Shown: positions 1,001 through 64,000 of the stretch, piece after piece | How the letters are laid out: each line of letters begins with the position of its first letter | Numbering within the stretch: the first letter of the stretch is position 1 | Origin: Sphyrna mokarran | Lineage: Eukaryota | Reading direction: 5' to 3' | Length of the DNA: 64,000 bases | NCBI GenBank assembly: GCA_024679065.1 | Contig: JAGIQG010000031.1 | Span: 19,778,001-19,842,000 of the forward strand | Position numbers and translations under genes: made by a program | Notes under the pieces: model-generated | Seen by the model: only the letters and a program-made list of their open reading frames with translations | Databases searched by the model: none | What the model was told of the DNA's origin: nothing

Positions 1001-1009
1001 ATGCCCTGG

Positions 1010-3452: not shown

Positions 3453-4419
3453 TAGATACAGAAAAGATTTGGCTTATTTCACTTCACTTTGAAAGGACAG
3501 GGAGAATTGATGTGTAATTAATTTTGCCGCTTGATTTAAACTCAGAGACTTGCGTTTCGGCGTGTTGATAATTTTTGCTACACCTGCCGGCAAGTGTGTA
3601 CAGATAATGGTAATTTTGTCCTGCCACCGAGTCTTTGTTGTCAAGGAGTAGTTTGTTTGCAAGCAGTAAACTTCCGTATATTTGCAGTGATATTAATGAT
3701 ATTGCCCAAATATATTATCCACTGGTTGTTACATTTCCCTCTTGCATCTTAGGCCAACGAATTTCACAATGCAAATGAAATGTCCAGCAACATCGCACTA
3801 ATATTATGGGTGAGCTGCCATCAAAACAAGAAACTGGAAATCCCCACAGCGCCAGGTGTTTCCTGTGAGGTCAACAGAACACGCAGTGACTGTTCTGAGG
3901 CTCTGCAAACTGTGAGCTGGTTTTCCCGTATTCATGAGAGTCTTTCTTGATTCCAAGCGCCTCCTATAAACCGTGCTACTGGATGAAAACAAGGGACACA
4001 ACAACTCTCTAACTCCCGGTTAAACATAGCGAAAGTTCTATTGCCAGCGAATGTGTCTGTGCGGCTTGCTTCTCACTGAGTGTTCACATGTTGAGCAAGC
4101 TGCTCTAAAAAGTGACGTAACGCATAAATTTTGTGCAATCCGCAGCGCTTCTGACAATCCGGTTCTGACCGCCACTCGACAATGGACAATGAAGAAAAAC
4201 TAGGCTACTCAGTTAGTGGCCCTGGATTATTGGCAATGTTCACAATGGTAACTGGCCTCATCAGCAGCGTCTGATCAACTCTGCCACCATGGGATGGGGC
4301 GTGTTCTCTTGATCTCAACATGATCCTAGTTATCAGCTTCTCCACAGCTCTGTACACATTTGTTCTATTCACCATCAATTGCATATCACTTCTTTATTTA
4401 TTGACCATATTGACTACTT

Positions 4420-6230
4420 TAAAAGGCAAAATACTGTGGATGCAGGAACATCAGCAGACAATGCCGGAACTTCTTAGCAGATCAGGCAATATGTACAGAG
4501 AGATTAATAGTCTAGCAGTCATACCACTAGGCAATGGATCAATTAATAAACTTGGCTAATGGGGACGTGGGTTTCTTTCAAAAAAAAACGCAATCAGGTT
4601 CACTGATGTCCTCTAGGGAAGGAAATCTGCTGTCCTTACCTGATCTGGCCTGCATGTGACTCCAGAGCCATAGCAATGGCCAAATACCCACTCAGTTCAA
4701 AGATACATAGGGATGGGCAATACATGCTGGCCAGCCAGCAACACTGACTGTCCAACAAATGAATAAAACAATAAAAGGAATTCAGGCCATTTTCTGAGAT
4801 TTGGGGAAAATGATCTCCAGGTATTCAAGTCAGAATTTAGGCAAGGGAAGGGGAAAAGGGGGAAAGGGTGAAATAGTAAATAGAAACTCTGTGATAAGTC
4901 TCCTATTCAGAAGTGCATTCCGGCAGCAATAAGATGGACTGAGCGATCAGGACCTCATTCTTTCAAAATCGACTGAATTCCAAAATTAGTGAAACGTCTA
5001 ATCGGAAGATGAAGCGCTGTTCCTCGGCCTTCATCTCAGCTGAATTGTAACAGCGTTGGAGATTGCGAGAGACAGATCGGGATGGGACAGGGACAGAGAA
5101 CGGGATGAAAAACTGACTGAAAGTTAGAACCCCGTTTCAGGGAGGTGCTGAACAAAGCAATGATGGAGAAGTGTGTCAAGACTAGTTGCAGGGAATTGTA
5201 CCTTTGAAATTGTATGAAGGGAAAGCAGAAGTGAGTATGTCGATTAGGAATATGGCACTTCGGTGATTGCGGTGGTAGAATTTGATTCCTTGTATGTGGA
5301 AGCTGGTGGATGTTGGTAAGGAGGGAATCTATATTATAGTCAGCAGAGGAATAGTAAGGTGTTGGACTAGAAATATGTGCAATAGGATAGATATGCTCGA
5401 GGGTCCACAGCAGCCATATTGCAAACGGATTCTAAATTGAGGCAATGGAGAGTAGATCAGAAACATTTGTGTGGAAGGCAGGATTGTCCAAATGGAAGAC
5501 ACAGAGATGCAGAATTGAAGAGAATGGAATAGAATCCGTGGAAGTGTCAGGATGTGAGAAAGTATAACTAAGGGAACTGTAGGAATCAAAGTTCTTGGAG
5601 TATAATTGATTGACATGGTTAATACTGATAGAATGAGTCACTGCTTCAAAGGCCCAGAATCTTTAAATTGCGGGGGTCAGTTGTTATAAAGGGATTCAAT
5701 TTTCTGGAGAGTTGAAGCCTTCCTGCAGCCACAGTAGTGGGAGCAAAGAATATTCCTGAGTGGATTAAGGACATTCCATGAAGGAAAGGGGAAAAAAATC
5801 TAGAAAACATGTTCAAATTAATGGTGTGTTTAAGTCAGGTCAAACAGGCAAAGTTTCAGTAACTGAGATAAAGATCAAAGAAGGTACTGTCCAATTTAGT
5901 CCCTAGATTGCTTTGTATTACAGAAACAAAAAGACAGTGCAGGTGAATATCTGCTTGAAGAGATGGGGGAGGGATGCCATCAGATCTATGAGACATTGAG
6001 ACAAGATCTGGGAAAAGAGGAATGTGCATTAACCATATGAGTTCCAGCAGTCGAGGACTCGGGCCGATTTCCACAGCGGGGGCTGGAAGTAGGGTTGTCG
6101 GGGAGAGTGGTAAACATCTGATAGTATTGGAACAGACAGAGAAAACAAACTGCCATATGTCAAAGGGTAGAGCTCCAAGAGCAGCAGATTGACCACAAAA
6201 CATCAAGCCAACTTGAATGATGGAGTGAAC
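4420..6230 (-). mobile_element. Degenerate Penelope-like retroelement, interrupted by a Deu-SINE fragment
   Basis: Minus-strand ORF 5432-5641 YTFSHPDTSTDSIPFSSILHL resembles the PLE RT thumb motif Y.S.HP..CK.SIPFSQFLRL; terminal aaaatactgtggatgcaggaa motif near 4430. Confidence 0.6.
4590..4770 (+). mobile_element. Deu-type SINE (SacSINE1-like) 3' fragment
   Basis: ggttcactgatgtcctctagggaaggaaatctgctgtccttacc...gggatgggcaatacatgctggcc...aatgaataaaa. Confidence 0.7.
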
Positions 6231-7749
6231 GAATGCTCCAAATCAGACTGACGAGCTGCAAGTGGAAATTGTCACTTGAAGCCACGTAGCTCTTTTAAAT
6301 AAATAGTTTAACGCCAGCTATATTGCGAGCTCACTGGCAAGTCACAGGTCAGTGCCGATAACTAACCAGGGTTCAGAACTTAAGAATACATGACCAGTTA
6401 TAATGTCAAATCCGATTATGCATAATTAACATAAAGCAATCAAGGAAGAGAAATTATCTCCACCCACTCAGTCACTGTAAAGGTTACAACATGAGTAAAG
6501 TCCAGATATTAAAACCAATCACAATCCCCTCAAGCCTGTTTAATTATAATATTCCATTAGCATGAAGACTTAATCATATTAACTGAACTAATTCATCTTT
6601 GTTACAAGTTATCATTAATGTCCTAGTTTGTGCCTGTTATCACTTCCAGTTCCAGATGTCTGATTTAGTGAACTTAGTCAGACTAGAAGCCTTGGCGCTT
6701 AACTGTGCAGACATTTATAAACCCATTTTTCTTTTCTCAGAGCAGCTTATGTGAAATTCAACCTTGTGTGACCATTAACCCTTTCAGAATTCGACAACTA
6801 CATAAAATGTGGAAACTGTTGGGAAAACGATATATGTTAAGGATCTCCAATTTTAACACCGATTCCTAAATACTGAATTGTCGATCATAAAGTTAATTTA
6901 GCAGATTCATCTGAAAAATGCATAAACAATGGAACAGCGATGTGGGGTATTTTCAACTACCCTAATTTAGAATGGGGGTAGTAAAAAGGCAAAGAGGATG
7001 AAGGATTGTTAAATTCTAATGCAATATGTTTGAAGCCCAAAGAGGAATGAAGCAGTGTTCGAGGTAGTTGTAGGGAATGAAATAGGAAAATTGTTTTGGG
7101 GGAAGGAAATAAAAATCAATCAGTTATAATATCAAAGAAATTTGAAAGACACAGAGAAAATTCAAAGAAGTTTTTTTTTGCAGGAAATGAAGCATTTTCA
7201 ATGATTGAAAGATGAGTGATAGTGAAGTTTAAAGTATTGTGTACAGTTCTGAACACTGTACTGTCTCTTCAACCATGGAGAGGGCATGAAGGTGGTTTAG
7301 GAGAAAGTTACCAGGGCCAAAGGAATACTGTTACGTGAGGGGCTTTGTGTTGATCAAGTTGGAGCAGGAAGGTTTAGGGGCAATTCAACAGAGTTATTTA
7401 GAATTATGAGAGACTGTGATAGAGCAAGAAGGTGGAAATGATTTCCTCTCGCAAGTGAATTGGGAAACATAGTTGGTAAATAGAATATAGTCATTAGAAG
7501 AACCAGAAGTAATGATGGAAATCACTTCACACAGAGGGTTACTCAAATTTTCAACGCACGAGCTGAAAGAGCAATGAAATCAGATTCTAGAGGAACATTT
7601 TAAAGGCAATTGAAGGCGTTTTTGGAGAGATCAGTATGTTGGGATCTCGGGAAAAGCTGCGTACATGAGAATACTTCACACAGCTATTTCTAAGAAACTG
7701 AACCAAGCAACCTCCTTCTGTACTTGATTAAATCTGTGATCTGGATGCA

Positions 7750-7915
7750 AGACTGTTGACTCATTTTCATTTCAGACTGTTGAGTCATTAGCCTCTCAGG
7801 ATAAGCTGGTGCTTGGAACCTGGTGCAGCACATTACGCCTGATTTGTTCATTTGACCAGATTGCAGCTGACGGTTTGCACACTATTGGTTACTTAAAAGG
7901 AAACATTGGTTTCTC
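7750..7915 (+). promoter_or_regulatory. Putative proximal promoter of the SRCR gene
   Basis: AP-1 motifs TGACTCA 7757-7763 and TGAGTCA 7781-7787, E-box CAGCTG 7864, inverted CCAAT (ATTGG) 7884 and 7905, Ets-like AGGAAA 7898; all within ~140-290 bp upstream of the ATG. Confidence 0.4.
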
Positions 7916-8046
7916 TACACGCTGGTACAAAGGAGTTAACTCCCAAAACAGTCGGACAGTGAAAAGGTGCTGAAAGACCGCTCGGCATCTCCGAAAAGCA
8001 TTCGGTCAATCTTCAGATGTTATCCCTGTAATTGACAGCCCGAAAG

Positions 8047-8092
8047 ATGTTGTTGCCTCGTCTGATCTTCATTCTGCTGCAGCTTTTAAACT
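8047..8092 (+). CDS. Signal-peptide exon MLLPRLIFILLQLLN
   Basis: aagATGt start, hydrophobic run, strong donor T|gtaagt in phase 1; conserved in the inverted copy. Confidence 0.7.
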
Positions 8093-11000
8093 GTAAGTGA
8101 TTGAAGGTATTCACTTATCTAATAATGCGTAGTGCACAATTGAAATGTGTTCATTTTTGATGCATTGGACATTACTGAAATGTTCGTATAGTTACACATT
8201 CAGCATTCCTGAAGTGTGTGCATTATTGATACATTGACCATTACTAAAATATGTGCATTAATATAATAACAAAATGTTATGAAGAGCAGTCGAACACAGT
8301 CCCTTTTCACCTGCGGGGAAACATTGAACTTGAGCTGACAAGTGAAATCATTTTTGGCGAAACCTTTGAGTTTCGAATATATCTCAACTAACTGCAATAC
8401 TGACAGGCAAGTGTTGTGTCAAAATTAGATTTAAAAACTTAAGCGAATGCAAGTGCCACAGCAGCCCGCTGTGTTTTGTACGCTGTCGCTTTGTGCAGAA
8501 ACAACAGTCCAGAAATGAATTTCTAACCTACTGTTTGAAGCCAGCATTCGAGAGGTCGTGTCCGATTTTTGTTAGACCAGATTGTATTTCAGTTTGGGTA
8601 TACGTTAACTCACTGAGGGCAGACTCCAGGCAGAACTGCACGGACTCCCGACCGATCCGACACAGACGGATCTATAGTAGATATTTCTCAGCATCAGTAT
8701 TGTCTGAACACCATGCGGTACATTTAATCCAAGCATTTGCGCACTTTGTGCAGCCCTGAAGCGTTGCAAAATGGCAGCTAAGCTGGAGGTGCAACTTTTT
8801 ATTCAAAACCGTATTTAATATTTCTATCAAAGCAAATCACTGCCGTTGGTGGAATCTGAAACCAAAAGAGAAAATGCTGGAAAATCTCAGCAACTTCGGC
8901 AGCATCTGCAAGGAAAGGAAAGACTGACGTTTCGACTCCAGATATTCTCTTGCCATCCAGACTCCGCTTGATGACTTCAAAAGTTGTTTAATATAAAATA
9001 CTTCATTTATTTATACATACAGTGCCTTGTGCTAATTTACACTTCCTCAATCGTCCATATTTTCCACATATATATTTATACATTATCATGTGTTGAATTA
9101 CATGGAAACTTATTTTTATCAACTTTCCGCCTTCTCGATATGTCTTATTGAGTTGCTCAGTGCTTTTCCGATTCAGGTCCTCACTCATTCCAATGTGTGC
9201 ACATTGAACCAATGTGTTTGGTTACATTTGTTGATTTTTATATTATAATAATGCTGGTATGCCAAGAGGGACACTTTGTGCCACGGCTTCCTGATACTTT
9301 GTGCAGTTACTGAATATTGGATGCTAAGATCCGAAATATATGGTTTATTTAAAGTATATTATCATCGAGTGCAATTCGGTATTTCCCTCGGTTTGCGATT
9401 GCATCTCCGTTGCTGAATATTGCGATAGAAAGGCCTTCTTGAAGTCAGTCGGCAGGAGGTCTAGCTTGGGCTAGTGTTGTACACTCAGGGAGGTTAACTA
9501 ACAATGCAGGCTCCTGGATCCCTGAAGTAGCCACTTTGAGCTTGTTGGGTCCAACTAGTCTGCTTAGGATTTCGTTTTCTGTCTGCTTGTCTTTGCAAGA
9601 GCAACGGAGGACCAAGTAAAGCAAACCGCAGCAGCATTGGTGTTCAATGTTTTGTTTAAATGTTAAATTGGGAGATTAAAATGCTTGTTAATGAGATATA
9701 AGATGGATCAGAAATGTTAAATTAACACAAGGCAGTGTCTGTATGAAAATGAACAGAATACTACAAACAATATTAAAGGTGATCATATTGAATATCACCA
9801 GTAACTAATCACAAACTCGGAATTAATCTCAGATAGGTTTATCATTCAACACTATTTTATAGCCAAGTGCATCAAATTCAATTAAGACAATCGGTCTTCA
9901 TTTCTGCCACGGACCGTAAAAAACGTGCATTATAGTTGAGGTAATGGAATTTGCCTTTGAGATTTTCGTCATGTTTAGATTTCTTATTGAAAATAATCCC
10001 GCAGCCGCTTCTCTCCATTTCTCTCCAATCGCTTTGCATAGACGAAACAGATTGGAGTTAAAATATCAAGTGGCGCCGAGTTATAGGAAGTGGTCAGTAT
10101 TGGAATAGAGGGTATGGGAGTCAGAAATATTCGGGATATTAGATCAGCAAGGCCATCATTCAACCATGAATGTACCGACTGCCGAATCAACCCGCATTGA
10201 GATTTCTGTCCCCGGAGTTTCGCAGTGCAAGTTCAGTGTGAAGGCACTATCAAAGTATAAATAGTTTGCACAGATTGGAAAAATGTGATAAATATTGTAT
10301 GTATTGACCCGAAAATAACATCGTTTCATTGATTTTAAGTATTAATACAATTGTCCCAGAAGTCCCAAAAGTATTCCATTGCTCAGGTACGATTTGCTGT
10401 ATGTGTCTGCCTTTGACGTCAAATTAACTTTGGATGTCATGCACAGTGTCTTAAGATAATTCGTGCATTTGGTCTCTTAAGATCAAACTCTGTGTTCGTC
10501 GTCTACTGGGAGAGGAAGGGCTCCAATGAAGATTTGAGACAGTGGACCAGCAACACATTACTGAATCATACATCAAACTTGACGGGCCTTATGGTCTATT
10601 CCCGGCCCAGTGTGTGTTATTTCATCTCCTTTCAAATGGTCTATGTTCTGGTCACTTTGTTAACAAATCCTTTTGCCTATTTATCTTCGACTGATTGTGA
10701 CCAGAACAATTTGCATGGGTCCTGTAAAGTTTTTGCTTTACGTTTGGTTATATTCTGACCATGATAACGTTTACTCAGGCACATGCACAGAAATTTGGAG
10801 TTAGATATTTGGAAGTTACTGAAAGCACTATTGATTTGATTTAATTTAATTTAATGTTGGCACATGCATTAATACACAGGAAAAATATGCGCTATACAGA
10901 GAGAACATACCATTTTTATAGTACACAGGGGAGAAGGAAAGGAGAGAGTGCAGTATAATAGAGCATTGCTGTCTCTGGGTGTAGGGAAGGATCTTAATAT

Positions 11001-14000
11001 AAGGTACGTCCATTCAAAAGTGAGATATTTGTCTGGATTCTTCATGTCTGCTGTTTCAATGGCGTATTGAAGGATAATTCTCAAATTGTGAAAAAATAAT
11101 CTGCTTTCTATATCCTGCTCAGCTTCGGAACTTGTTCAGATAAGACATAGCTGATTAATATAAAACAATGATTTCAATTCTTCATGCAGCTAATAATGTG
11201 CTGGAGGAACATGATCTAGTAAACATTATTCACTGCATTTTGTAATTTTAAAATCGCCCTTGTAAAATACAGTTTCCAAGCCATGTAATAGAAAAGAAAG
11301 GATAGAAGATAGCAGGAATCTAACTTCAGGCAGAACGGAAAAGGTGATAAGTCTGAGAAGGGAATTTGTCTCTGAGGATGTTGTACCTAAATGCGCACAA
11401 TATACAGAAAAGGATAAATGAGCTTGTTGCACACTTTGAAATTGGCCGGGATATGTTGTGGATCTCACAGAGACATGGCTGCAAGGGGATCAGGACTCGA
11501 ATCTAAATATCCAAGGATATTGGTCCCATCGAAAAGACAGGCATATATGCAAAGGGGACAGGATGGCTCCGTTGGTAAGGAATGAAATTAAATCAATTGC
11601 AAGAAGCGATATAGGGCCAGAAGGCATAGAATTCTGTGGATGCGATAAAGAATGGCAAAGATAAAAGGATCCTCAAGGGAGTTATGTACGGGCCCTGTCG
11701 TGGTGGTCAATATGGGGCAGAAAATCAATCAAGAGGCAGAAAATGCCTCTTCAAGTTATTTAAGGCAATATTACAATAATCATGAAGGGCTTCAATATGC
11801 AGGTGGGCTGGGAAAATCAGGTAGGCAATGGATCCAAGAAATGGAGTTTGTGAAATGTTTAAGAGATAGATGAATTATTGGAGCAGCTTGTGACAGAGTC
11901 TACCAGGGAACAGGCAATTCTGGATTTGGTGATGTGGAATGGAGCAGACTTGATTAGGGAACTTAAGGTGAAGAAACCCTCAGAGCTGTGACCTCAATAT
12001 GATGGAATTTACCCTGCAGCTTGAGAGGGGGAAGCTGGAATCAGATTGTAGAGTACACAATACAGACAACTACAAGGACATGTGGAGGAGCTGGACAGAC
12101 GTGATTGAAAAAGCAAGCTTGCCGGGAAGACAGTGGATCATTAATTTTGGGGGCTATTCGGGAGGACAACAAAAATTCAGACCAAGGCGGAGGAAAAATA
12201 TAAAGGGGAGAACGAGGCATCCATGGCTAAAGAGTGAAGTCAAGGACAGCATAAAAGCAGACAATTCATACAACGAGGTGGGGATTAGTGGGAAGCCAGG
12301 GGATTGGAAAGTCTTTAAAAGTGAACAGAGGACAACTAAATAAGCAGTAAGATGAGAGAAGATGAGATATGAGTGTAAGCTAGTTAGTAATATAAAAGGA
12401 CATAGGAAGAGTATTTTTTAATATCTAAAAGGTGAGAAAAAGGCAAAAATACACATTGGCCACTGAAAAATTAGATTGGAGAAGTAATAATGCAGGAAAC
12501 AAAGAAATGGCAGAGAGAAACAAAAAGGACAGCATCGACAAGTTGGCTGAAGGATCTGTTTCCATGCTGTAAACCTTTAGGACTCTATGACTCTATCACT
12601 CTATAACTGAATAGTCACCTTCCATCAATTTTCATGATGGAAGATTCCAGTGGGATGACAGAGCACCAGAGAATCGGGGGCATAGGTGAGTGTAGTGGGC
12701 ATCACGAAGGAGAAGGTTCTGGAAGACTGAAAGGTGGATAAATCACCTGGACCTGGTGAACTATACCTCAGGGTGTTAAAATTGATAGGTGAGGAAATTT
12801 TGGAGGGATTGGTGGTGATATTTCAGGAATCACTGGAGGCAGGAAGATCCCAGAGGACTGAAATGATCAATCTGTGGAAATCTTTGCTGCACAAGGCTGT
12901 GGAGGCCACGTCATTGAGAGTTTTTAACCAGAGATAGATAGATCTTGATTAAAAGGAGATCAGGTGTTATGGGAAAAAGGCAAGAGAATGAGAGTGTAAA
13001 ACATATCCGACATGATTGAATGGTGGAGTATACTCAATGGGCCGAATGGCTTAATTCTGCTCTTATGTCTTATTGCCTTATGTAGCTAATTTCCAAATTG
13101 GAATACCAGTATTTCAGATCTCAATCAGCAAGGGAAATTGCGGTCCATGAAATTCCCCATTTTATTCTGCATTAGTTTGCGTCTTCTGAGTTTCCTGTTG
13201 TTTATACTAATATTACCGATTGATTGTTTGCCTTAAGAAGATGTGATTAACTGAAGTGCAACGTTTTAAAATAACTTTCAAATTTTTGCAATTAAGCAGC
13301 AGTGCCAGGAGTGAAATTTGCAGGGTTCTGTAATGTAGCTACTGTAGTCAGGGAAGCAGATTAGTTTGGTGAATGGTACATGCGCGACAGGATATCTGCC
13401 GCAGGATTTACAATCAGCTGTAGTTTAACGAGTTTGACATCTGACGAGGAGATGGTAGAAATCGTGAGTTTTAAGTTTTTAAGTTTATTTCTTAGTATCA
13501 ACAATGGCTTGCATTAACACTGCAAAGAAATTACGATGAAAATCACCTCATCGCCAAACTCCGGTGCACATAGAATTTGGCATGGCTAATGAACTTAATC
13601 AGCACACTTTTGGGACTGTGGGGTAAAACTGGAGGAAACCCACGCAGATATGGGACAGCGTTCAGTCACCGCACAGACAGTGACCCAAGCCAGGAACTGA
13701 ATCCGTGTTCCTGCAGTACCACCATGCCACCCACATTAATTTAACTTCTGTGTATTTGTTTAACATCTATGCATATATCGGTGATTAGGACAAATAAATA
13801 CTTTCAACATTTAACCAAACCAGCGGATCAGACACTATGACATGGGACCTGGGAGAAAATAGATTCGTGCAGATCATTCGTGGTGAAGCAGTAATGCCCG
13901 AGAAAGGAAAATGAATGAAATTTATGTGAGTTAATAAGCCCAGAGGAATGAGCACGAATAGGAATCAGTTTGCAGATGATTGCTTTTCACTTTCATGCCT

Positions 14001-17000
14001 TGGGCAGCCCTAGATACGTAGATAAACTGGATAAAGGTCTGCTCTTGAAACATTGAGTAATTAGAACAGAATGACATGAAAAAAACATAAGAGGAATTCA
14101 TCAGTACAATGAGGGGTTGAAAGGATATAAACAGGAAGCATATGGAGAGAAAACTGAATGGATTGAAGTAGACCCATCCATCTTCACCGATACGTCACTG
14201 ACATGTTGAGATTGTGAACCTTTTTGGGACAAAGAAAGATTATTTCCCCTGGTCTTTCAGTGGGTTGGAGGGGGAATTTCAGGATGCTGGCAGACAGAGT
14301 TTTTTAAAATTCATTTGTGTGACGTGGGTATCGCTGGCTGGGTCAGCATTTATTATCAAATCCTAATCACTTTTCAAGGGCAGTCAAGTCAACGACATTG
14401 CTGTGGCTCTGGAGTTACATATAGGCCATATCGGGTGAGAACGGCATATTCCCTTCCCTGAAGGACATTTTGAAACAGATGAGTGTTTCCTACAGGGGCA
14501 ATGGTTGCATGATCGTACAATATAATTCCAGATTTTATATAATAGAGTTCAAGTTACACCACCTGCCATAGTAGAATTCGAACCTTGGCCCCCAGACCAT
14601 AAGTTACCAGATCAATAGTCTTGTGATAACACCACTAAGCTACCGCCTTGCCTATAAAAACTAACATATTAATTACATGACAGAAGCAAGAACAGAAAGA
14701 GACAAGTAGTTGGGGAATTGAAAGATTAAGTACGTGGCTTGAAGATTGTTATGAGGAAATAGGTTTTGCTTCCTCGACACTGGCAGCTGCATTGCAGAAA
14801 GTAGGTGTTGTACGATTGGGACATCTTTCAACTGACCTGTGTTGGACCTGTGTCCTGATGTGCTGTATAAATAGAGTGGCGACGAGGACTTCCAAAGAAA
14901 AAGTGTGGGCAAGGGATAATGTAAGAGGGCATGTGGTAAATCAGAGGAAAATAACAAGGTAACAGAATGGTGATTTAGTTAACGATTGGGACATGAAGGG
15001 AAAGATAAATCAACTTTATGAGTATCGCAGCAGATGAGGCCGGAAACTGCAGAAATAGTAACAAGATGGAAATATAGAGGGGCTTACAGCACTCAGAAAC
15101 ATGGTAGCATTGATAGATATAATATACTGACTTGACAGTCAGTATAAGAAGGCCGAGGCTTAGATGTATATGTTGAAAAATACGAGATATTTTCAAGTGA
15201 TAGGAAGCGAGGAAAAGGAAATGAAATTACTCTGTAAATAAAAGGACATCATTGTTACAGTAGCTGGAGAGCAAGTATAGAATCTGTTTGAATAGAGATG
15301 ACAAATAGTAACGGTGAAATATCACACGTGGGAGTGGCACAGAGGACCCTGAACTGTGGGTACCAAAGGGTGCACATAAAAATCAATGGAACTCGAATAA
15401 AAAGTGCTGCAATAATCATGAGTGAGTGAAATCTACACGTAGCTTGGGCGAATCATATCATCAAATGTAATCTGGACCATAAATTCATGGAGTGTTTATT
15501 CTAAAAGAAGGAAGCCATATCTGGATTCATGCGCAGAATGTTGGCTTTCTTTGAAATATATATAATAGTTCGGGGAATGTTCACGCATTCGTGGGATGAG
15601 GGGCCTATTGAATGAAGGAAGATTGGATATTTTCGACCCATATCCATTTGAATTTAGAAGAGTGAGATATCTTGAGAGGCTTGGATAGAATAGATATCAG
15701 GAAGATATTCCACTTAGATTCTAACAAGGGGACGCGGTTTAAGAATAAGTCTACGTGTTAAGGTGGAGATTTTCGTCTCAGAGGGTCGTTACTCTACAGA
15801 ATTCACACCCAGAATGCAGTGGCGGCTCTGTTGTTGAATCTAATTAGGATGGATTGAAGCAGATTTTGGATCGGCAAGGCAGTGAAGGGTTGTTAATGGA
15901 ACGGGTTGCAGACAACAAAATGGAGTTGAAACTACAGTCAAAACAGCCAGGGAATTATTGAATGGCGGAGTACGTTCGACAAGCTGAATGGTTTACTCCA
16001 ATATTGCTTTGCATCATCCTAACAGCATTTTGAAATTGCAGCAAACTGCAATCATTAAAGAATGATGATCAAACATCATTAGCATGTTGAAGAATAGGGC
16101 AGGTCAGTGGAGGATAGGTTGCAACAGCGACCTGACTGTAGGGATTAATAAGCGGAATTTTATATCTTCGCCCCAGCAAGACCAGAACCTTTCACCCAGA
16201 TATTTCCAACACTCACCCACTTCGAATCTGTGGCGGGTAAGGTAGTAAAAATTCGGTGAATGATTGCAACCATAGAGAAGGAGTAGCGGTGAATCCATTG
16301 GTCTTGTTGAGTTTGAGAATGTTCGCAATTAACTCACTCCAACAGCTTCCTGTGTGCTCCGTTGTAGAAACTTTCGTTCCGATTTTACAATCTCTTTGAC
16401 CCCGTTTTCTAGAGCGAAAACTGGATAAAGTCAGTCGAGAGACCAATAGCGAGACCCGCGTCCGCCGACGCTCCGGATTCCCCCTTCACCAAGACTCCAA
16501 AATGGCTGCGCCAATACTCATGAGAAGGCGTTTGCATTAATTTCAATTGACTTAATGGACTGCAGGCCCATCTTTACTGGCATTTCCCCCTTTAGCATTG
16601 TGTTCGCCCACCCAGAATTGGCACAAAACTGAAATGTTCCTTAAAAGGCCGATTCCAGAACTCCAGTTAGTAGATACTTAGAGTCCTACGGCTCACTGCT
16701 GAGATCTGTGGACGAGGGGGTGAGTGGGGTCAGCTGCAACTTTGCCTCAGATCAGTGGGGGGGTGGGGAGGAGGGGCGGGGCCTGTCATCGGTCTGGGTG
16801 GTGGGTTTATGGACATAAAAGGGACAGTAATGTTGTGGAATGAGACAATTTCTGTTAGAAGAAGGAGGTGGCATTATCCGGTCCGGAAGGGATGCGGCAG
16901 GGGAGTGTGGTGTATCATGTTCTGTGCATGCGCAATTGGATGCGCCGAAGAGACCTACACCGTTATAGCATTTAACGCCGCACAAAGACTTCTACAGCAA

Positions 17001-43210: not shown

Positions 43211-43264
43211 TATATTGACTTTGTATTAGCTCTGTTCCCCTTGCCACAGATGTAAACAATTCAT

Positions 43265-45275: not shown

Positions 45276-45389
45276 CATTTTTCCAGCAATTTCTTTTTCA
45301 GTAATGTGCAGGCTTGATTTATTCTCCCTCAGACATACGCACTGAAGGGTGAGGGGTGGGGGGCGGGCTTAGTCATACACAGCTAATAC

Positions 45390-53324: not shown

Positions 53325-53600
53325 GGTGGCATGGTGGTACTGAAGGAACACGGATTCAGTTCCTGGCTTGGGTCACTATCTGTGTGGTGACTGAACGCTG
53401 TCCCATATCTGCGTGGGTTTCCTCCAGTTTCACCCCACAGTCCCAAAAGTGTGCTGATTAAGTTCATTAGCCATGCCAAATTCTATGTGCACCGGAACAG
53501 CACCGGAGTTTGGTGATGAGGTGATTTTCATCGTAATTTCTTTGCAGTGTTAATGCAAGCCATTGTTGATACTAAGAAATAAACTTAAAAACTTAAAACT
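53325..53600 (+). mobile_element. HE1-related SINE (mirror of 13480-13735)
   Basis: Reverse complement of the left-arm copy. Confidence 0.75.
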
Positions 53601-53984
53601 CACGATTTCTACCATCTCCTCGTCAGATGACAAACTCTTTAAACTACAGCTGATTGTAAATCCTGCGGCAGGTATCCTGTCGCGCATGTACCATTCACCA
53701 AACTAATCTGCTTCCCTGACTACAGTAGCTGCATTCCAGAACCCTGCAAATTTCACTCCTGGCACCGCTGCTTAATTGCCAAAATTTGAAAGTTATTTTA
53801 AAACGTTGCACTTCAGTTAATCACATCTTCTTAAGGCAAACAACCAATCGGTAATATTAGTATAAGCAACAGGAAACTCAGAGGACGCAAACTAATGCAG
53901 AATAAAATGGGGAATTTCATGGACCGTAATTTCACTTGCTGATTGAGATGTGAAATACTGATATTCTAATTTGGAAATTAGCTA

Positions 53985-55700
53985 CATAAGGCAATAAGAC
54001 ATAAGAGCAGAATTAAGCCATTCGGCCCATTGAGTATGCTCCACCATTCAATCATGTCGGATATGTTTTACATTCTCATTCTCCCGCCTTTTCCCCATAA
54101 CACCTGATCTCCTTATTAATCAAGATCTATCCATCTCTGTTTAAAAACTCTCAATGACGTGGCCTCCACAGCCTTGTGCAGCAAAGATTTCCACAGATTG
54201 ATCATTTCAGTCCTCCGGGATCTTCCTGCCTCCTGTGATTCCTGAAATATCACCACCAATCCCTCCAAAATTTCCTCACCTATCAATGTTAACACCCTGA
54301 GGTATAGTTCACCAGGTCCAGGTGATTTATCCACCATTCAGTCATTCCAGAACCTTCTCCTTCGTGATGCCCACTACACTCACCTATGCCCCTGATTCTC
54401 TGGTGCTCTGTCATCCCACTGGAATCTTCCACCATGAAAATTGATGGAAGGTAACTATTCAGTTATAGAGTGATAGAGCCATAGAGTCCTAAAGGTTTAC
54501 AGCATGGAAACAGATCCTTCAGCCAACTTGTCGATGCTGCCCTTTTTGTTTCTCTCTGCCATTTCTTTGTTTCCTGTATTATTACCTCTCCAATCTAATT
54601 TTTCAGTGGCCAATGTCTGTTTTTGCTTTTTTCTTACCTTTTAGATATTAAAAAAATACTCTTCCTATGTTCTTTTATATTACTGACTAGCTTACACTCA
54701 TATCTCATCTTCTCTCATCTTACTGCTTATTTAGTTGTCCTCTGTTCACTTTTAAAGACTTTCCAATCCCCTGGCTTCCCACTAATCCCCACCTCGTTGT
54801 ATGAACTGTCTCCTTTTATGCTGTCCTTGACTTCACTCTTTAGCCATGGATGCCTCGTTCTCCCCTTTATATTTTTCTTCCATCTTGGTCTGAATTTTTG
54901 TTGTCCTCCCGAATAGTCCCCAAAATTAATGTTTCACTGTCTTCCCTGCAAGCTTGCTTTTTCAATCATGTCTGGCCAGCTCCTCCACATGTCTTTGTAG
55001 TTGCCTGTATTTGACTGTGTTCTCTTCAATCTGATTCCAGCTTCCCCCTCTCAAACTGCAGGGTAATTTCCATCATATTGAGATCACTGCTCTGAGGGTT
55101 TCTTCACCTTAAGTTCCCTAATCAAGTCTGCTCCATTCCGCATCACCAAATCCAGAATTGCCTGTTCCCTGGTAGACTCTGTCACAAGCTGCTCCAATAA
55201 TTCATCTATCTCTTAAACATTTCACAAACTCCATTTCTTGGATCCATTGCCTACCTGATTTTCCCAGCCCTCCTGCATATTGAAGCCTTTCATGATTATT
55301 GTAATATTGCCTTAAATAATATGCATTTTCTGCCTCTTGATTGGTTTTCTGCCCCATATTGACCACCACGACAGAGCCCGTACATAACTCCCATGTGGAT
55401 CTTTGTGTCTTTGCCATTCTTTATCGCTATCCACAGAATTCTATGCCTTCTGATCCTATATCGCTTCTTGCAATTGATTTAATTTCATTCCTTACCAACG
55501 GAGCCATCCTGTCCCCTTTGCATATATGCCTGTCTTTTCGATGGGACCAATATCTTGGATATTGAGATTCCAGACCTGATCCCCTTGCAGCCATGTCTCT
55601 GTGAGATCCACAACATATACCGGCCAATTTCAAAGTGTGCAACAAGCTCACTTATCCTTTTCCGTATATTGTGCGCATTTAGGTACAACATCCTCAGAGA
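53985..55700 (-). mobile_element. Old CR1 (mirror of 11370-13082)
   Basis: Mirrored ORF remnants 54116-54337 and 55485-55691. Confidence 0.85.
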
Positions 55701-58700
55701 TAAATTCCCTTCTCAGACTTATCACCTTTTTTGCTCTGCCTGAAGTTAGATTCCTGCTATCTTCTATACTTTCTTTTCTATTAAATGGCTTGGAAACTCT
55801 ATTTTACAAGGGCGATTTTAAAATTACAAAATGCAGTGAATAATGTTTCCCAGATCATGTTTCTCCAGCACATTATTAGCTGCATGAAGAATTGAAATCA
55901 TTGCTTTATATTAATCAGCTATGTCTTATCTGAACAAGTTCCGAAGCTGAGCAGGATATAGAAAGCAGATTATTTTTTCACGATATGAGAATTATCCTTC
56001 AATACGCCATTGAAACAGCAGACATGAAGAATCCAGACAAATATCTCACTTTTGAATGGACGTACCTTATATTAAGGTCTTTCCCTACACCCAGAGACAG
56101 CAATGCTCTATTATACTGCACTCTCTCCTTTCCTTCTCCCCTGTGTATTATATAAATGGTATGTTCTCTCTGTATAGCGTGCATATTTTTCCTGTGTATT
56201 AATGAATGTGCCAATATTAAATTAAATCAAATCAAATCAATAGTGCTATCAGTAACTTCCAAATACCAAACTCCAAATTCCTATGCATGTGCCTGAGTAA
56301 ACGTTATCGTGGTCAGAATATAGCCAAACGTAAAGCAAAAATTTTACAGGACCCATGCAAATTGTTCTGGTCACAATCAGTCGAAGATAAACATGCAAAA
56401 GGATTTGTTAACAAAGTGACCAGAACATAGACCATTTGAAAGGAGATGAAATAACATACACTGGGCCGGGAATAGACCGTAGGGCCGGCCAAGTTTGCTG
56501 TATGATTCAGTAATGTGTTTGCTGGTCCACTGTCCCAAATCTTCATTGGTGCCCTCCCTCTCCCAATAGACGACGAACACAGAATTTGATCTTAAGAGAC
56601 CAAAAGCACGAATTATCTTAAGACACTGTGCATGACATCCAAAGTTAGTTTGACGTCACAGGCAGACACATACAGCAAATCATACCTGAGCAATGGAATA
56701 CTTTTGGGACATGTCATTGACTCCAATTCCATTAATAATTAAAATCAATGAAACGATATTGTTTTCCAGATCAATACATACAATATTTATCACATTTTTG
56801 CAATCTGTGCAAACTATTTTTACTGTGTTTTACTGTGTTTCAGCCTTCACACTGAACTTGCACTGCGAAACTCCGGGGACCGAAATCTCAATGCGGGTCG
56901 ATTCGGCAGTCGGTCCAGTTGCTCCGTGGTTGAATGATGCTCTTGCTGATCTATTATCCCGAATATTTCCGATTCCCATACCCTCTATTCCAATATTGAC
57001 GACTTCCTATAACTAGGCGCCACTTGATATTTTAACTCCAGCCTGTTTCGTCTCTTCAAAGCGATTGGAGAGAAAAGGAGAGAAGCGGCTGCGGGATTAT
57101 TTTCAATAAGAAATCTAAACATGACGAAAATCTCAAAGGCAAATTCCATTACCTCAACTATAATGCACGTTTTTTACTGTCCGTGGCAGAAATGAAGACC
57201 GATTGTCTTATTTGAATTTGATGCACTTGAATATAAAATAGTATCTAACATGTGTTGAATGATAAATCTAGCTGAGATTAATTCCGAGTTTGTGATTAGT
57301 TAGTGGTGATATTCAAAATGATCACCTTTAATATTGTTTGAAGTATTCGATTCATTTTGATACAGACATTGCCTTGTGTTAATTTAACATTCCTGATCCA
57401 TCTTATATCTGATTAACAAGCATTTTAATCTCCCAATTTAACATTTAAACAAAAATTGAACACCAGTGCTGCTGCGGTTTGCTTTACTTGGTCCTCCGTG
57501 GCTCTTGCAAAGACAAGCAGACAGAAAACGAAATCCTAATTAAACTAGTTGGACCCAACAAGCTCGAAGTGGCGACTTCAGGGATCGAGAAGCCTGCAGT
57601 GTTAGTTAACCTCCGTGAGTGTACAACACTAGCCCAAGCTAGACGTCCTGCCCGACTGAACTCAAGAAGGCCTTTCTATCGCAATATTGTGCAACAAAGA
57701 TGCAATCGCAAACCGAGAGAAATACCGAATGGCACTCGATGATAATATTAATAAATATTTAAATAAATAAATCATATACAAATCATATAAATCACTTTAA
57801 ATAAATCCAATATTCAGTAACTGCACAAAGTATCAGGAAGCCGTGGCAGAAAGTGTCCCTCTTGGCATACCAGGATGTTTTATAATATAAAGATCAACAA
57901 ATGTAACCAAACACATTGGCTCAATGTGCACACATTGGAATGAGTGAGGACCTGAATCGGAAAAGCACTGAGCAACTCAATAAGACATATCGAGAAGGCG
58001 GAAAGTTGATAAAAATAAGTTTCCATGTAATTCAACACGTGATAATGTATAAATATATATGTGGAAAATATGGACGATTGAGGAAGTTTAAATTAGCACA
58101 AGGCACTGTATGTATAAATAAATGAAGTATTATATATTAAACAACTTTTGAAGTCACCAAGCGGAGTCCAGATGACAAAAGAATGTCGGAGTCGAAACGT
58201 CAGTCTTTCCTTTCCTTACAGATGCTGCCGAAGTTGCTGAGATTTTCCAGCATTTTCTCTTTTGGTTTCAGATTCCACCAACGGCAGTGATTTGCTTTGA
58301 TAGAAATATTAAATACGGTTTTGAATAAAAAGTTGCACCTCCAGCTTAGCTGCCATTTTGCAACGCTTCAGGGCTGCACAAAGTGAGCAAATACTTTAAT
58401 TGGATTAAATGTACCGCATGGTATTCAGACAATACTGATGCTGAGAAATATCTACGATAGAACCGTCTGTGTCGGATCGGTCGGGAGTCCGTGCAGTTCT
58501 GCCTGGAGTCTGCACTCAGTGAGTTAACATATACTCAAACTGAAATACAATCTGATCTAATAAAAATCGGACACTACCTCTCGAACGCTGGCTTCAAACT
58601 GTAGGTTAGAATTTCATTTCTGAACTGTTGTTTCTGCACGAAGCGACAGCGTACAAAACACGGCGGGCTGCTGTGGCACTTGCATTTGCTTTCGCTTTTA

Positions 58701-59094
58701 AATCTAATTTTGTCACAACTCTTGCCCGTCAGTATTGCAGTTAGTTGTGAAATATTCGAGACTCAAAAGTTTCTCCAGAAATGATTTCACTTGTCAGCTC
58801 AAGTTCAATGTTTCCCCGTAGGTGAAAAGGGACTGGGTTCGACTGCTCTTCAAAGGTTTGAGCCGAAAGACTGGGCTTAACTCCACTGGGGATGTACCAA
58901 ACTATCGGAGCTGCTCTCGATTGAATGAGCCGCTATTCGGGCGCCCGACTGCCCTCTTAGGTACAAGATTTCGAAGAAGTGCCAGACAGCTTCTTCTCGC
59001 CAATATTAACCGATCAACCAACATCACAAATAAATGAGTCTGGTTATTATCAGACTCATTTGTTCTTGTTTGTTGCACCTTGCTCTACCGAAAG

Positions 59095-59365
59095 TAGCAC
59101 AGTGGTTAGCACTGCTGTCTCACAGTACCAGGCTCACGGGTTCCATACCCGGCTTTGGGTCATTCTGTTGCACGCTCTCCCCCTATCTGCATGATTTTTC
59201 TCCTGGTGCTAAGATTTCCGCCCCCAGTTTAAAAGCTGTGTTGTTAGGTGCAATGGCCATGATAAATTCTCCCTCAGTGTATCTGAATAAATGCTGGAAT
59301 GTGTCGACTGGGATATTTTCACAGTAAACTCATCGCAGTGTTAATGTAAGCCTGCTTGTGCATTA
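59095..59365 (+). mobile_element. HE1-related SINE inside the right-arm-only segment 58853-59898
   Basis: gtagcacagtggttagcactgctgtctcacag head; ttttcacagtaaac...gtgttaatgtaagcct tail. Confidence 0.8.
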
Positions 59366-60076
59366 ATGCAATGTCTCCTTTCCTATTGTGCTAAAATATA
59401 TGCGGTTATTTGAATATTTTCGAGCAACGCGGCGATTTGACATAAACTTCCTTGGCATACCCCGAAGTCTAAAAGGCGATATTAATGCCAGCATTTAGTT
59501 TTTTACAGAAAAGTAAGAGATTTCCCCAATTGCGGTTGATGGAATTTAAATGTGAACCAATCAATCCACAACATATATCAGATGAGGTTCTACAAATTCA
59601 CCAAACTATTTCAATATCAGTCGATCGCAATAAACAGCAGATTATAAAGTAGATGGTTTTCTGTAAAATGGCCCCAAGCACCTGTTGCCGAAGTGACTGC
59701 ACTCGATGTACGACAGACGCAGTTTCAATAAACCAGTTACATTTTTAATTCCAGTCTGCCCTGTGCACCAAAGTCGCAAATGGAACTCGCGTTAGCAACA
59801 TTTTTTGACATCTCATTAAATTACCCACAATAAAATCAAAACCCAAGAAAATATTATTTTCTTTGCAATCCGCTCATTACGTTCTGTTAGTGAAGGCAGT
59901 TATTATATTAATGCACATATTTTAGTAATGTTCAATGTATCAATAATGCACACACTTCAGGAATGCTGAATGTTTAACAATACGAACATTTCAGTAATGT
60001 TCAATGCATCAAAAATGCACACATTTCAATTGTGCACTACGCATTATTAGATAAGTGAATACCTTCAATCACTTAC

Positions 60077-60122
60077 AGTTTAAAAGCTGCAGCAGAATGA
60101 AGATCAGACGAGGCAACAACAT
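60077..60122 (-). CDS. Signal-peptide exon of the inverted copy
   Basis: Identical MLLPRLIFILLQLLN with gtaagt donor. Confidence 0.6.
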
Positions 60123-61939
60123 CTTGCGGGCTGTCAATTACAGGGATAACATATGAAGATTGACCCAATGGTTTTCGGAGATGCCGAGCGGTCTTTCAGC
60201 ACCTTTTCACTGTCCGACTGTTTTGGGAGTTAACTCCTTTGTACCAGCGTGTAGAGAAACCAATGTTTCCTTTTAAGTAACCAATAGTGTGCAAACCGTC
60301 AGCTGCAATCTGGTCAAATGAACAAATGAGGCGTAACGTGCTGCACCAGGTTCCAAGCACCAGCTTATCCTGAGAGGCTAATGACTGTCAACAGTCTGAA
60401 ATGAAAATGAGTCAACGGTCTTGCATCCAGATCACAGATTTAATCAAGTGCAGAAGGAGGTTGCTTGGTTCAGTTTCTTAGAAATAGCTGTGTGAAGTAT
60501 TCTCATGTACGCAGCTTTTCCCGAGATCCCAACATACTGATCTCTCCAAAAACGCCTTCAATTGCTTTTAAAATGTTCCTCTAGAATCTGATTTCATTGC
60601 TCTTTCAGCTCGTGCGTTGAAAATTTGAGTAACCCTCTGTGTGAAGTGATTTCCATCATTACTTCTGGTTCTTCTAATTACTATAATTCTATTTACCAAC
60701 TATGTTTCCCAATTCACTTGCGAGAGGAAATCATTTCCACCTTCTTGCTCTATCACAGTCTCTCATAATTCTAAATAACTCTGTTGAATTGCCCCTAAAC
60801 CTTCCTGCTCCAACTTGATCAACACAAAGCCCCTCACGTGACAGTATTCCTTTGGCCCTGGTAACTTTCTCTTAAACCACCTTCATGCCCTCTCCATGGT
60901 TGAACAGACAGTAGTGTTCAGAACTGTACACAATACTTTAAACTTCACTATCACGCATCTTTCAATCATTGAAAATGCTTCATTTCCTGCAAAAAAAATC
61001 TTCTTTGAATTTTCTCTGTGTCTTTCAAATTTCTTTGATATTATAACTGATTGATTTTTATTTCCTTCCCCCAAAACAATTTTCCTATTTCATTCCCTAC
61101 AACTACCTCGAACACTGCTTCATTCCACTTTGGGCTTCAAAAATATTGCATTAGAATTTAACAATCCTTCATCCTCTTTGCCTTTTTACTACCCCCATTC
61201 TAAATTAGGGTAGTTGAAAATACCCCACATCGCTGTTCCATTGTTTATGCATTTTTCAGATGAATCTGCTAAATTAACTTTATGATCGACAATTCAGTAT
61301 TTAGCAATCGGTGTTAAACTTGGAGATCCTTAACATATATCGTTTTCCCAACAGTTTTCACATTTTATGTAGTTGTTGAATTCTGAAAGGGTTAATGGTC
61401 ACACAAGGTTGAATTTCACATAAGCTGCTCTGAGAAAAGAAAAATGGGTTTATAAATGTCTGCACAGTTAAGCACCAAGGCTTCTAGTCTGACTAAGCTC
61501 ACTAAATCAGACATCTGGAACTGGAAGTCATAACAGGCACAAACTAGGACATTAATGATAACTTGTAACAAAGATGAATTAGTTCAGTTAATATGATTAA
61601 GTCTTCATGCTAATGGAATATTATAATTAAACAGGCTTGAGGGGATTGTGATTGGTTTTAATATCTGGACTTTACTCATGTTGTAACCTTTACAGTGACT
61701 GAGTGGGTGGAGATAATTTCTCTTCCTTGATTGCTTTATGTTAATTATGCATAATCGGATTTGACATTATGACTGCTCATGTATTCTTAAGTTCTGAACC
61801 CTGGTTAGTTATCGGCACTGACCTGTGACTTGCCAGTGAGCTCGCAATATAGCTGGCGTTAAACTATTTATTTAAAAGAGCTACGTGGCTTCAAGTGACA
61901 ATTTCCACTTGCAGCTCGTCAGTCTGATTTGGAGCATTC

Positions 61940-63750
61940 GTTCACTCCATCATTCAAGTTGGCTTGATGTTTTGTGGTCAATCTGCTGCTCTTGGAGCTC
62001 TACCCTTTGACATATGGCAGTTTGTTTTCTCTGTCTGTTCCAATACTATCAGATGTTTACCACTCTACCCGACAACCCTACTTCCAGCCCCCGCTGTGGA
62101 AATCGGCCCGAGTCCTCGACTGCTGGAACTCATATGGTTAATGCACATTCCTCTTTCCCCAGATCTTGTCTCAATGTCTCATAGATCTGATGGCATCCCT
62201 CCCCCATCTCTTCAAGCAGATATTCACCTGCACTGTCTTTTTGTTTCTGTAATACAAAGCAATCTAGGGACTAAATTGGACAGTACCTTCTTTGATCTTT
62301 ATCTTAGTTACTGAAACTTTGCCTGTTTGACCTGACATAAACACACCATTAATTTGAACATGTCTTCTAGATTTTTTTCCCCTTTCCTTCATGGAATGTC
62401 CTTAATCCACTCAGGAATATTCTTTGCTCCCACTACTGTGGCTGCAGGAAGGCTTCAACTCTCCAGAAAATTGAATCCCTTTATAACAACTGACCCCCGC
62501 AATTTATAGATTCTGGGCCTTTGAAACAGTGACTCATTCTAATCAATATTAACCATGTCAATCAATTATACTCCAAGAACTTTGATTCCTACAGTTCCCT
62601 TAGTTATACTTTCTCACATCGTGACACTTCCACGGATTCTATTCCATTCTCTTCAATTCTGCATCTCTGTGTCTTCCATTTGGACAATCCTGCCTTCCAC
62701 ACAAATGTTTGTGATCTACTTTCCATTGCCTCAATTTAGAATCCGTTTGCAATATGGCTGCTGTGGACCCTCGAGCATATCTATCCTATTGCACATATTT
62801 CTAGTCCAACACCTTACTATTCCTCTGCTGACTGTAATATAGATTCCCTCCTTACCAACATCCACCAGCTTCCACATACAAGGAATCAAATTCTACCACC
62901 GCAATCACCGAAGTGCCATATTCCTAATCGACATACTCACTTCTGCTTTCCCTTCATACAATTTCAAAGGTACAATTCCCTGCAACTAGTCTTGACACAC
63001 TTCTCCATCATTGCTCTGTTCAGCACCTCCCTGAAAAGGGGTTCTAACTTTCAGTCAGTTTTTCATCCCGTTCTCTGTCCCTGTCCCATCCCGATCTGTC
63101 TCTCGCAATCTCCAACGCTGTTACAATTCAGCTGAGATGAAGGCCGAGGAACAGCGTTTCATCTTCCGATTAGGCGTTTCACTAATTTTGGAATTTAGTC
63201 GATTTTGAAAGAATGAGGTCCTGATTGCTCAGTCCATCTTATTGCTGCCGGAATGCACTTCGGAATAGGAGACTTATCACAGAGTTTCTATTTACTATTT
63301 CACCCTTTCCCCCTTTCCCCCTTCTCTTGCCTAAATTCTGACTTGAATACCTGGAGGTCATTTTCCCCAAATCTCAGAAAATGGCCTGAATTCCTTTTAT
63401 TGTTTTATTCATTTGTTGGACAATCAGTGTTGCTGGCTGGCCAGCATGTATTGCCCATCCCTATGTATCTTTGAACTGAGTGGGTATTTGGCCATTGCTA
63501 TGGCTCTGGAGTCACATGTAGGCCAGACCAGGTAAAGACAGCAGATTTCCTTCCTTAGAGGACATCAGTGAACCTGATTGCGTTTTTTTTTGAAAGAAAC
63601 CCACGTCCCCATTAGCCAAGTTTATTAATTGATCCATTGCCTAGTGGTATGACTGCTAGACTATTAATCTCTCTGTACATTTTGCCTGATCTGCTAAGAA
63701 GTTCCGGCATTGTCTGCTGATGTTCCTGCATCCACAGTATTTTGCCTTTT
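61940..63750 (+). mobile_element. Penelope-like remnant plus Deu-SINE fragment (mirror of 4420-6230)
   Basis: Reverse complement of the left-arm copy. Confidence 0.6.
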
Positions 63751-64000
63751 AAACTAGTCAATATGGTCAATAAATAAAGAAGTGATATGCAATTGATGGT
63801 GAATAGAACAAATGTGTACAGAGCTGTGGAGAAGCTGATAACTAGGATCATGTTGAGATCAAGAGAACACGCCCCATCCCATGGTGGCAGAGTTGATCAG
63901 ACGCTGCTGATGAGGCCAGTTACCATTGTGAACATTGCCAATAATCCAGGGCCACTAACTGAGTAGCCTAGTTTTTCTTCATTGTCCATTGCCGAGTGGT

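Follow-up and report, generated by a model that had tools for sequence, protein, structure and literature searches.

The 64-kb window analysed here (the whole stretch examined, positions 19,778,001 to 19,842,000 of contig JAGIQG010000031.1 in the Sphyrna mokarran assembly GCA_024679065.1) carries on its forward strand a gene which, as judged from its predicted product, is an intact elasmobranch receptor built like the CD163/WC1 family. Its 18 phase-1 exons run from 8047 to the stop codon at 41008-41010 and encode an uninterrupted protein of 1172 residues, comprising a signal peptide, a linker, nine SRCR domains, a stalk, a transmembrane (TM) segment and a tail with eight tyrosines. All nine SRCR exons score above the cut-off for PF00530 (Pfam), and the domains span 102-105 amino acids with 6-9 cysteines, the exception being S4 with 85; SRCR domains of the group B/CD163 family typically have 100-110 amino acids and 6-8 cysteines. 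Each domain is encoded by a single phase-1 exon; one exon per SRCR domain is a feature of group B SRCR proteins and the CD163 family. Behind the gene, the assembly places an inverted second copy of its 5′ half, and the origin of this copy is the main subject of the present analysis.

A first-pass annotation had described an inverted duplication of more than 15 kb around a spacer of about 27 kb. Self-BLAST confirms this arrangement as assembled, with three collinear inverted blocks (all E=0.0) that pair 4172-8270 with 63999-59899 (98.4% identity), 8280-16165 with 58852-50867 (93.8%), and 16159-19498 with 49889-46555 (95.7%). The inner end of the arms agrees with the one given before. The proposed outer end at 4171/64000, however, is merely the edge of the window, so that the arm length of 15.3 kb is a minimum. 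When the minus strand of the window was searched by tblastn for a second copy of exons S4-S9, the TM exon or the tail exons, none was found.

The copy retains the signal exon, the linker exon and one complete SRCR exon, as had been proposed, all with intact splice sites and no disabling change in 388 coding bases. At four of the eight changed sites in its SRCR1 exon, the base agrees with S2 and/or S3, suggesting that the tandem exons have exchanged sequence. On the minus strand we detected no SRCR, TM or tail match that could serve as a downstream exon completing the copy, and three acceptor-like sites past its SRCR1 exon give only short frames. Reading through into the intron, the copy meets a stop after 14 codons and an AATAAA motif at 46601, and thus may yield a secreted single-SRCR protein of 143 residues by intron read-through and intronic polyadenylation. 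The identical stop and AATAAA are found in the tandem units of the left arm, hence they are not special to the copy. Such a motif lies in the intron of every tandem SRCR unit (18635, 19453, 20236, 21017 and 46601), with an in-frame stop soon past the donor, and short secreted isoforms of one to three SRCR domains are possible.

Alignment of the two arms over 4172-19290 yielded 538 substitutions and 46 indel events. Their divergence is uneven, with 1.36% at 4172-7993, 5.09% at 7994-17073 and 1.13% at 17074-19290, and is interrupted by perfectly identical runs of 624, 598, 290, 241 and 237 bp, the two longest of which were matched by none of 10000 permutations. The arms are two different sequences that were partly homogenised in the past, mutually or with further copies. 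Because of the mosaic and the long perfect runs, the earlier suggestion of gene conversion holds as far as past exchange with a related copy is concerned, although that partner need not have been the other arm. Two segments of about 1 kb are private to the right arm. The 1037-bp segment at 58860..59896 shows no target-site duplication and is therefore probably explained by a deletion in the left arm. The other is a 984-bp insert carrying the 3′ end of a long interspersed nuclear element (LINE), whose reverse-transcriptase fragment is 71% identical in protein sequence to the reverse-transcriptase open reading frame at 1-915. These two young LINE 3′ fragments (1-915 and 50083-50775) have open frames of 304 and 230 codons. 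When 8272-16524 is compared with the right arm, an asymmetry appears: the right arm has the longer sequence in 13 of 15 indels of at least 5 bp (P 0.007) and, overall, in 33 of the 46 indels (P 0.005).

The right arm shows no indel relative to the left through its SRCR1 exon and into the following intron up to 46717, after which a burst of indels sets in. Within the initial 250 bp of this intron, 14 indels and 7 substitutions are seen, compared with 46 and 538 over 4172-19290 (Poisson P 1e-13, Fisher P 1.4e-10). This terminal window was chosen after inspection, and the excess survives correction for 76 windows. Of the 76 windows of 200 bp, two were left out because they contain the 1-kb inserts; one-base indels number 0-3 in 73 of the remaining 74 and eight in the terminal window. 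The burst is also private to this copy: ten pairwise comparisons among five other copies of the SRCR1-type intron gave 0-7 indels, whereas all five pairs that include the terminal copy gave 14-17. At 21 events in ~165 bp, the mixed difference of ~13% is at the level of an unpolished long read, since raw long-read input is reported to carry more than 10% error (PMC7545148), and from this private burst of one-base indels we infer that one or very few reads carry the junction. The copy had been called truncated and does end at 46555 as assembled, but the burst at 46716-46555 makes the truncation point doubtful. For the 400 bp beyond the junction no source was found elsewhere in the window (best scores 57.5 and 72, compared with 48.5-65.5 in ten shuffles). 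A bacterial promoter and terminator scan of the junction was set aside as not meaningful for a vertebrate.

With a probability of about 65%, we consider the right arm to be the 5′ half of a second version of the gene, either a paralogue or a divergent allele, the rest of which would have been collapsed and which the assembler would have joined to the present locus. Two gene versions would then exist, the left locus representing the intact gene and the right arm the intact 5′ half of the other. Being ~5% apart in the middle block, they would have been assembled separately, while from 17.1 kb inward, where they would be ~99% identical, noisy long reads would have been merged into one copy. The segment adjoining the break is only 1.13% divergent, compared with the ~2% divergence down to which assemblers are described as resolving repeats (PMC7545148). 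The 3′ part of the second version would accordingly be absent from the assembly and not truly deleted, and its loose end, present on one or very few reads, would have been joined to the flank at 46555 without a gap. False duplications sometimes joined by unsupported gap filling, and arising at boundaries between heterozygous and homozygous sequence, have been described (PMC9516828). The underlying biology would be the ordinary turnover of a multigene family, with tandem duplication of N-terminal SRCR exons and exchange between them through germline conversion or unequal crossover. We tentatively take the second version to be a paralogue, at somewhat less than even odds, and regard a divergent allele from the other chromosome as doubtful, because 5% over 9 kb together with a private LINE is high for alleles.

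Several points weigh against a join made during assembly, an argument which draws entirely on the assembled sequence. The 64-kb window contains no N, whereas false duplications are mostly separated by gaps (PMC9516828). The spacer side of the junction is single-copy in the window, so that the noise could be gauged on the arm side only, and the imperfect microhomology of a few bases at the junction is also consistent with a genuine rearrangement. The assembly is clean elsewhere, with all 18 exons and both LINE open reading frames (304 and 230 amino acids) open, and the intact frame over 388 bases is weak evidence at such divergence. Finally, even a lone raw gap-filling read could carry a true junction.

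Among the alternatives, a fold-back artefact, i.e., a palindromic read of a single molecule, would account for the inverted orientation and the noisy junction. Such artefacts have identical arms and almost no spacer. Here, 538 substitutions and two 1-kb segments distinguish the arms, and the spacer between them measures 27 kb, which largely refutes this explanation and leaves it a negligible chance. A real layout, in which an inverted duplicate of the 5′ half lies tail-to-tail behind the gene, serves as a germline conversion donor and occasionally allows homologous inversion of the 27-kb spacer, is possible but less likely. It takes the sequence as assembled and is compatible with the mosaic divergence and the 624- and 598-bp perfect runs; a human inversion is reported to use 7-kb repeats with 94% mean identity and a 782-bp near-perfect patch (PMC3961182), and such an orientation is reported for 411 human gene-pseudogene pairs (PMC12632684). 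The read-through stop 14 codons into the intron and the AATAAA at 46601 count in its favour, but both also occur in the tandem units of the left arm. A real layout gives no account of the indel burst: 21 events fall within 165 bp here, a far higher density than the seven additional mutations within 4 Mb described around genuine replicative junctions (PMC9609164).

The allelic form of the assembly explanation holds that the right arm is the other allele, placed in inverted orientation by scaffolding or gap filling, with one gene per chromosome. The blocks of 1.1-1.4% divergence could be allelic, the junction noise would be expected, and heterotype false duplications are given as the main type, mostly on the same scaffold in long-read assemblies (PMC9516828). 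In contrast, a divergence of 5.09% over 9 kb, combined with a 1-kb indel and a LINE insert private to the right arm, is more than alleles usually show. In the three species studied, heterozygosity of false duplicates exceeded that of the background only ~1.5-1.8-fold (PMC9516828), and several sharks have been described as low in heterozygosity (PMC9826928). An allelic origin would thus need an old or paralogue-derived intron 1. The paralogue, haplotig and true-copy cases predict different ratios of read depth between arms and spacer. The test proposed earlier, half-depth on both arms, misses collapsed inner arms, which would show up as doubled depth of the spacer.

The first-pass annotation had further inferred that crossover between the arms would invert the spacer and exchange the promoter and N-terminal domain joined to the gene body, giving a flip-type allele switch. 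The geometry allows such an inversion in principle, the perfect runs offer stretches of identity long enough, at hundreds of bases, for crossover, and inversions of this kind form a known human class. For the most part, however, N-terminal domains would not be exchanged, as SRCR1 is preceded by 96.4% of the visible arm. This portion comprises the sequence before the ATG (25.3%), the signal exon (0.3%), intron 1 (63.1%), and linker plus intron 2 (7.7%), whereas SRCR1 itself makes up 2.0% and the sequence after it 1.6%. Whatever lies 3′ of a crossover stays with the gene body and only the 5′ part is swapped, so that only ~3.6% of the visible arm can alter SRCR1, and both long perfect runs lie upstream of this exon. 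In a typical inversion, the gene body would therefore receive an upstream region of 98.6% identity together with an unaltered signal exon, and no more than one residue of the linker would differ, making most flips nearly silent.

A programmed or lymphocyte-specific somatic inversion that switches the 5′ half driving the receptor appears extremely improbable to us, even though the geometry allows it, both 5′ halves are intact and the gene belongs to an immune receptor family. Matches to the recombination signal sequence (RAG consensus only) are at chance level, with two for the 12-spacer (0.86 expected) and one for the 23-spacer (1.00 expected), none of them near an arm end, and no recombinase domain was found by Pfam in 13 chosen of 91 listed reading frames, although a recombinase gene could lie elsewhere. 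Together with the doubtful junction and the near-silent swaps, this leaves the switch unsupported. Convergent transcription had also been suggested to yield double-stranded RNA. This idea is weak, since transcripts of like sense, as these two are, cannot form a duplex, and antisense overlap needs ~4.7 kb of read-through past five minus-strand AATAAA motifs (motif matches only). It is improbable that the layout is both real and functional, with the open-frame copy acting as conversion donor for the ligand-binding first domain (seven replacement changes), as source of a secreted single-domain decoy and as substrate of recurrent spacer inversion. In that event, recurrent inversion of the 27-kb spacer would hand the one gene body to either promoter; in the boldest and least probable version, inversion in lymphocytes would make the expression of a WC1-like co-receptor vary from clone to clone at the base of the jawed vertebrates.

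Table 1. Coordinates of the duplication arms, receptor exons and other features in the 64-kb window.
Feature	Position	Strand	Description
Left arm	4172..19498	+	Upstream region, signal exon, 9.7-kb intron 1, linker exon, pseudo-exon, SRCR1, 250 bp of next intron
Right arm, inverted copy	46555..63999	-	Continues past window end at 64000
Spacer, 27.1 kb, single-copy in this assembly	19499..46554	.	SRCR2 through gene 3′ end plus ~4.7 kb flank
Noisy right-arm end and junction	46555..46716	-	15 indel events (14 of 1 bp), 6 substitutions relative to left arm
Spacer side of junction	from 46554	.	Apparent short interspersed nuclear element remnant, read by eye
Right-arm signal exon	60077..60122	-	46/46 bases identical to left, donor intact
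Right-arm linker exon	48262..48294	-	One change, Tyr to Cys at exon-spanning codon
Right-arm pseudo-exon	47640..47869	-	Identical to left
Right-arm SRCR1 exon	46807..47115	-	Frame open and splice sites intact; differs from left at 8 nucleotides (7 replacement, 1 silent)
Right-arm private segment, 1037 bp	58860..59896	.	Close to step from 1.4% to 5% divergence
Right-arm private insert, 984 bp	49890..50873	+	LINE 3′ end: reverse-transcriptase C-terminal fragment plus microsatellite tail
Candidate signal-peptide exon	8047..8092	+	ATG, 15 codons, phase-1 consensus donor
CpG-rich patch in intron 1	16335..16950	.	NRF1-, ETS-, YY1-, SP1-like motifs; minus-strand consensus donor
Linker mini-exon, 33 nt	17763..17795	+	9/10 residues identical in Mustelus P0128
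SRCR pseudo-exon, 5′-truncated, 230 nt	18188..18417	+	Possible cryptic acceptor; splicing-in would shift frame
Three tandem 309-nt SRCR exons	18940..20804	+	S1 18940-19248, S2 19711-20019, S3 20496-20804; period ~775 bp
SRCR S4 (short)	22725-22982	+	
SRCR S5	25001-25315	+	
SRCR S6	28184-28495	+	
SRCR S7	30116-30430	+	
SRCR S8	31197-31514	+	
Linker exon between S8 and S9	31600-31656	+	
SRCR S9	31742-32056	+	
Stalk exon	32175-32216	+	
Transmembrane exon	32410-32514	+	
Tail exons	33479-33577, 37351-37455, 38162-38293, 40871 to stop 41008-41010	+	
AATAAA of gene 3′ end	41787	+	

At the 5′ end of the gene, the candidate signal exon ranks best among 153 ATG-to-phase-1-GT candidates (searched in 1-17760), and the N-terminus it provides aligns loosely with the start of Narcine P0104 and is absent in the Mustelus model. 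The CpG-rich patch of intron 1 contains, at 16.5-16.9 kb, a cluster of housekeeping-type motifs resembling NRF1, ETS, YY1 and SP1 sites, as judged by consensus patterns. Promoter motifs had been said to be kept in the copy. The patch is indeed kept in the right arm (49100-49720), ~10% diverged and including the most divergent 500-bp window before the junction (9.9%), and both arms retain its minus-strand donor, but if this cluster was meant, it is not upstream of the start codon, lying inside intron 1 ~8.5 kb downstream of the best signal-exon candidate. As no threshold-passing signal-exon candidate is found between the cluster and the linker exon, we reject it for now as the receptor promoter. 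A non-coding or alternative start at this site is possible, and the patch is a candidate first exon or promoter of an antisense or unrelated transcript, or a relic. Rfam gave no matches.

Domains S1, S2 and S3 each have six cysteines and lack the second and seventh. They differ mainly at replacement sites (e.g., 16 of 18 changes between S1 and S2), and among the N-terminal domains the ratio of replacement to silent change (pN/pS) was 0.9-2.5 in all six pairs, none of which was significant for positive selection (P 0.16-0.73). In the pseudo-exon preceding them, the 5′ quarter is replaced by LINE-like DNA. S4 is ~18 residues short and lacks the fifth and sixth cysteines; since a sawshark protein shares the same short domain, it represents an old state rather than damage. 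A gap of three residues relative to Mustelus P0128 suggests a possible additional micro-exon in the tail.

Three elasmobranch multi-SRCR receptors annotated as “DMBT1-like” provide the closest comparison. The protein of Mustelus asterias (P0128) is 76% identical over 839 columns, and its linker, S5-S9 (82-92% identity), stalk, TM and three tail exons correspond one by one to those found here. Its model has one N-terminal domain and no S4, in contrast to the three tandem domains plus pseudo-exon of the present gene. The Pristiophorus (sawshark) protein P0109 has the identical domain order including the short S4, and S4-S8 each pair with their own P0109 counterpart on a starred branch of the domain tree. 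In the ray Narcine bancroftii, P0104 carries six tandem N-terminal domains with six cysteines, compared with three here, and S1-S3 group with the N-terminal domains of sawshark and ray (98/97). The ray and sawshark proteins were supplied by a homolog search with SRCR1, where the best identity among the matches listed (120 of 217) was 58% and long multi-SRCR proteins crowded the results. A tail-exon search scored none of five candidates; this blank is uninformative, since P0128 is 77% identical there. The five weak matches from a library search with the first tail exon covered short stretches and were not used.

Broad membership in the group B/CD163 class is supported by domain size, cysteine pattern and topology of the predicted protein. 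CD163A, CD163b/M160, CD163c-alpha/SCART and bovine WC1 are likewise type I membrane proteins with group-B-like SRCR domains and a tyrosine-bearing tail, some of their domains show the paired loss of the second and seventh cysteines, and the N-terminal domain is variable (PMC2906472). The top PDB matches are CD163/M130, a ranking that favours multi-domain chains. In a tree of 49 domain rows, which contained no WC1 sequence, S5 groups with domains 8/9 of elephant M160 (97/95), S7 with domain 10 (85/73) and S9 with domain 12 (94/90), whereas S6 and S8 do not group with domains 9 and 11, so that three of the five domains of this membrane-proximal cassette are in register. None of the eight tail tyrosines exactly matches the conserved WC1/CD163c motif Y-(Q/E)-(D/C/E)-(I/L) (PMC2906472), the nearest being YAEI, which is off at +1. 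Further hallmarks of the WC1/CD163c-alpha (SCART) group are an “a”-type N-terminal SRCR domain, a multigene array and expression on gamma-delta T cells. With this motif unmatched and the domain cassette only partly in register, membership in WC1/SCART proper is not shown. A literature search covering few subscription journals returned no title or opening of an abstract describing such shark receptors, and the words “shark” and “fish” do not occur in PMC2906472.

Elsewhere in the window, a C-rich tract at 1040-2020 (GC skew -0.45) contains degenerate telomere-like hexamers, with 19 motif matches per kb compared with fewer than eight in nearly all other kb, and is possibly an old interstitial telomeric or subtelomeric repeat.

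If a join made during assembly is the correct explanation, the SRCR receptor locus is under- or mis-assembled in this assembly, and there would probably be a second full-length version with a different first domain. Such a version would fit a small WC1-like family of shark receptors with expanding and exchanging N-terminal domains. A real layout would instead add a shark case to the known class of inversions between a gene and its partial copy, and would be of note only if the flip or the secreted form alters expression. The leads most worth following are the shark CD163/WC1-like receptor itself and its likely hidden second full-length version.

Inversions that involve a gene and an inverted paralogue or partial copy of it form a known class. 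IDS/IDS2, SORD/SORD2P, CTRB1/CTRB2 (HsInv0030) and AQP12A/B (HsInv0241) resemble the present locus in having inverted homologous copies in cis. Inversion has been described for IDS/IDS2, and HsInv0030 swaps the first exon and promoter between CTRB1 and CTRB2 (PMC4576756); AQP12A/B and a 94%-identical repeat pair likewise show inversions (PMC3961182). In the human pairs, the layout and both orientations have been validated, whereas the shark locus is known from one assembly, in which the inverted homologous copies are placed on one molecule but the stretch joining them looks unpolished. Moreover, a flip here would put an intact 5′ half on the gene body and not break the gene. CD177/CD177P1 is also an immune receptor with a minus-strand partial copy, 10 kb away, that acts as germline conversion donor (PMC4882059). 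CD177P1, however, corresponds to exons 4-9, the 3′ half of the gene, and what it donates is a stop codon, while the shark copy is a 5′ half with an open frame. For the avian IGH locus, inverted copies have been proposed as conversion donors (bioRxiv 10.64898/2026.09.05.749481), in this case many V pseudogenes used in somatic conversion in B cells, as opposed to one 5′ copy of a non-rearranging receptor.

The known false duplications and collapsed repeats (PMC9516828, PMC7545148) offer a further comparison, as do the bovine WC1 genes, which have been annotated as partial owing to gaps or, in the case of WC1-2, as a mis-assembled concatemer (PMC3511184). They differ from the shark locus in that no N gap is present here and the middle block is unusually divergent for alleles. 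They share with it a partial copy on the same scaffold, errors at the join, and a copy that stops where the two versions become nearly identical.

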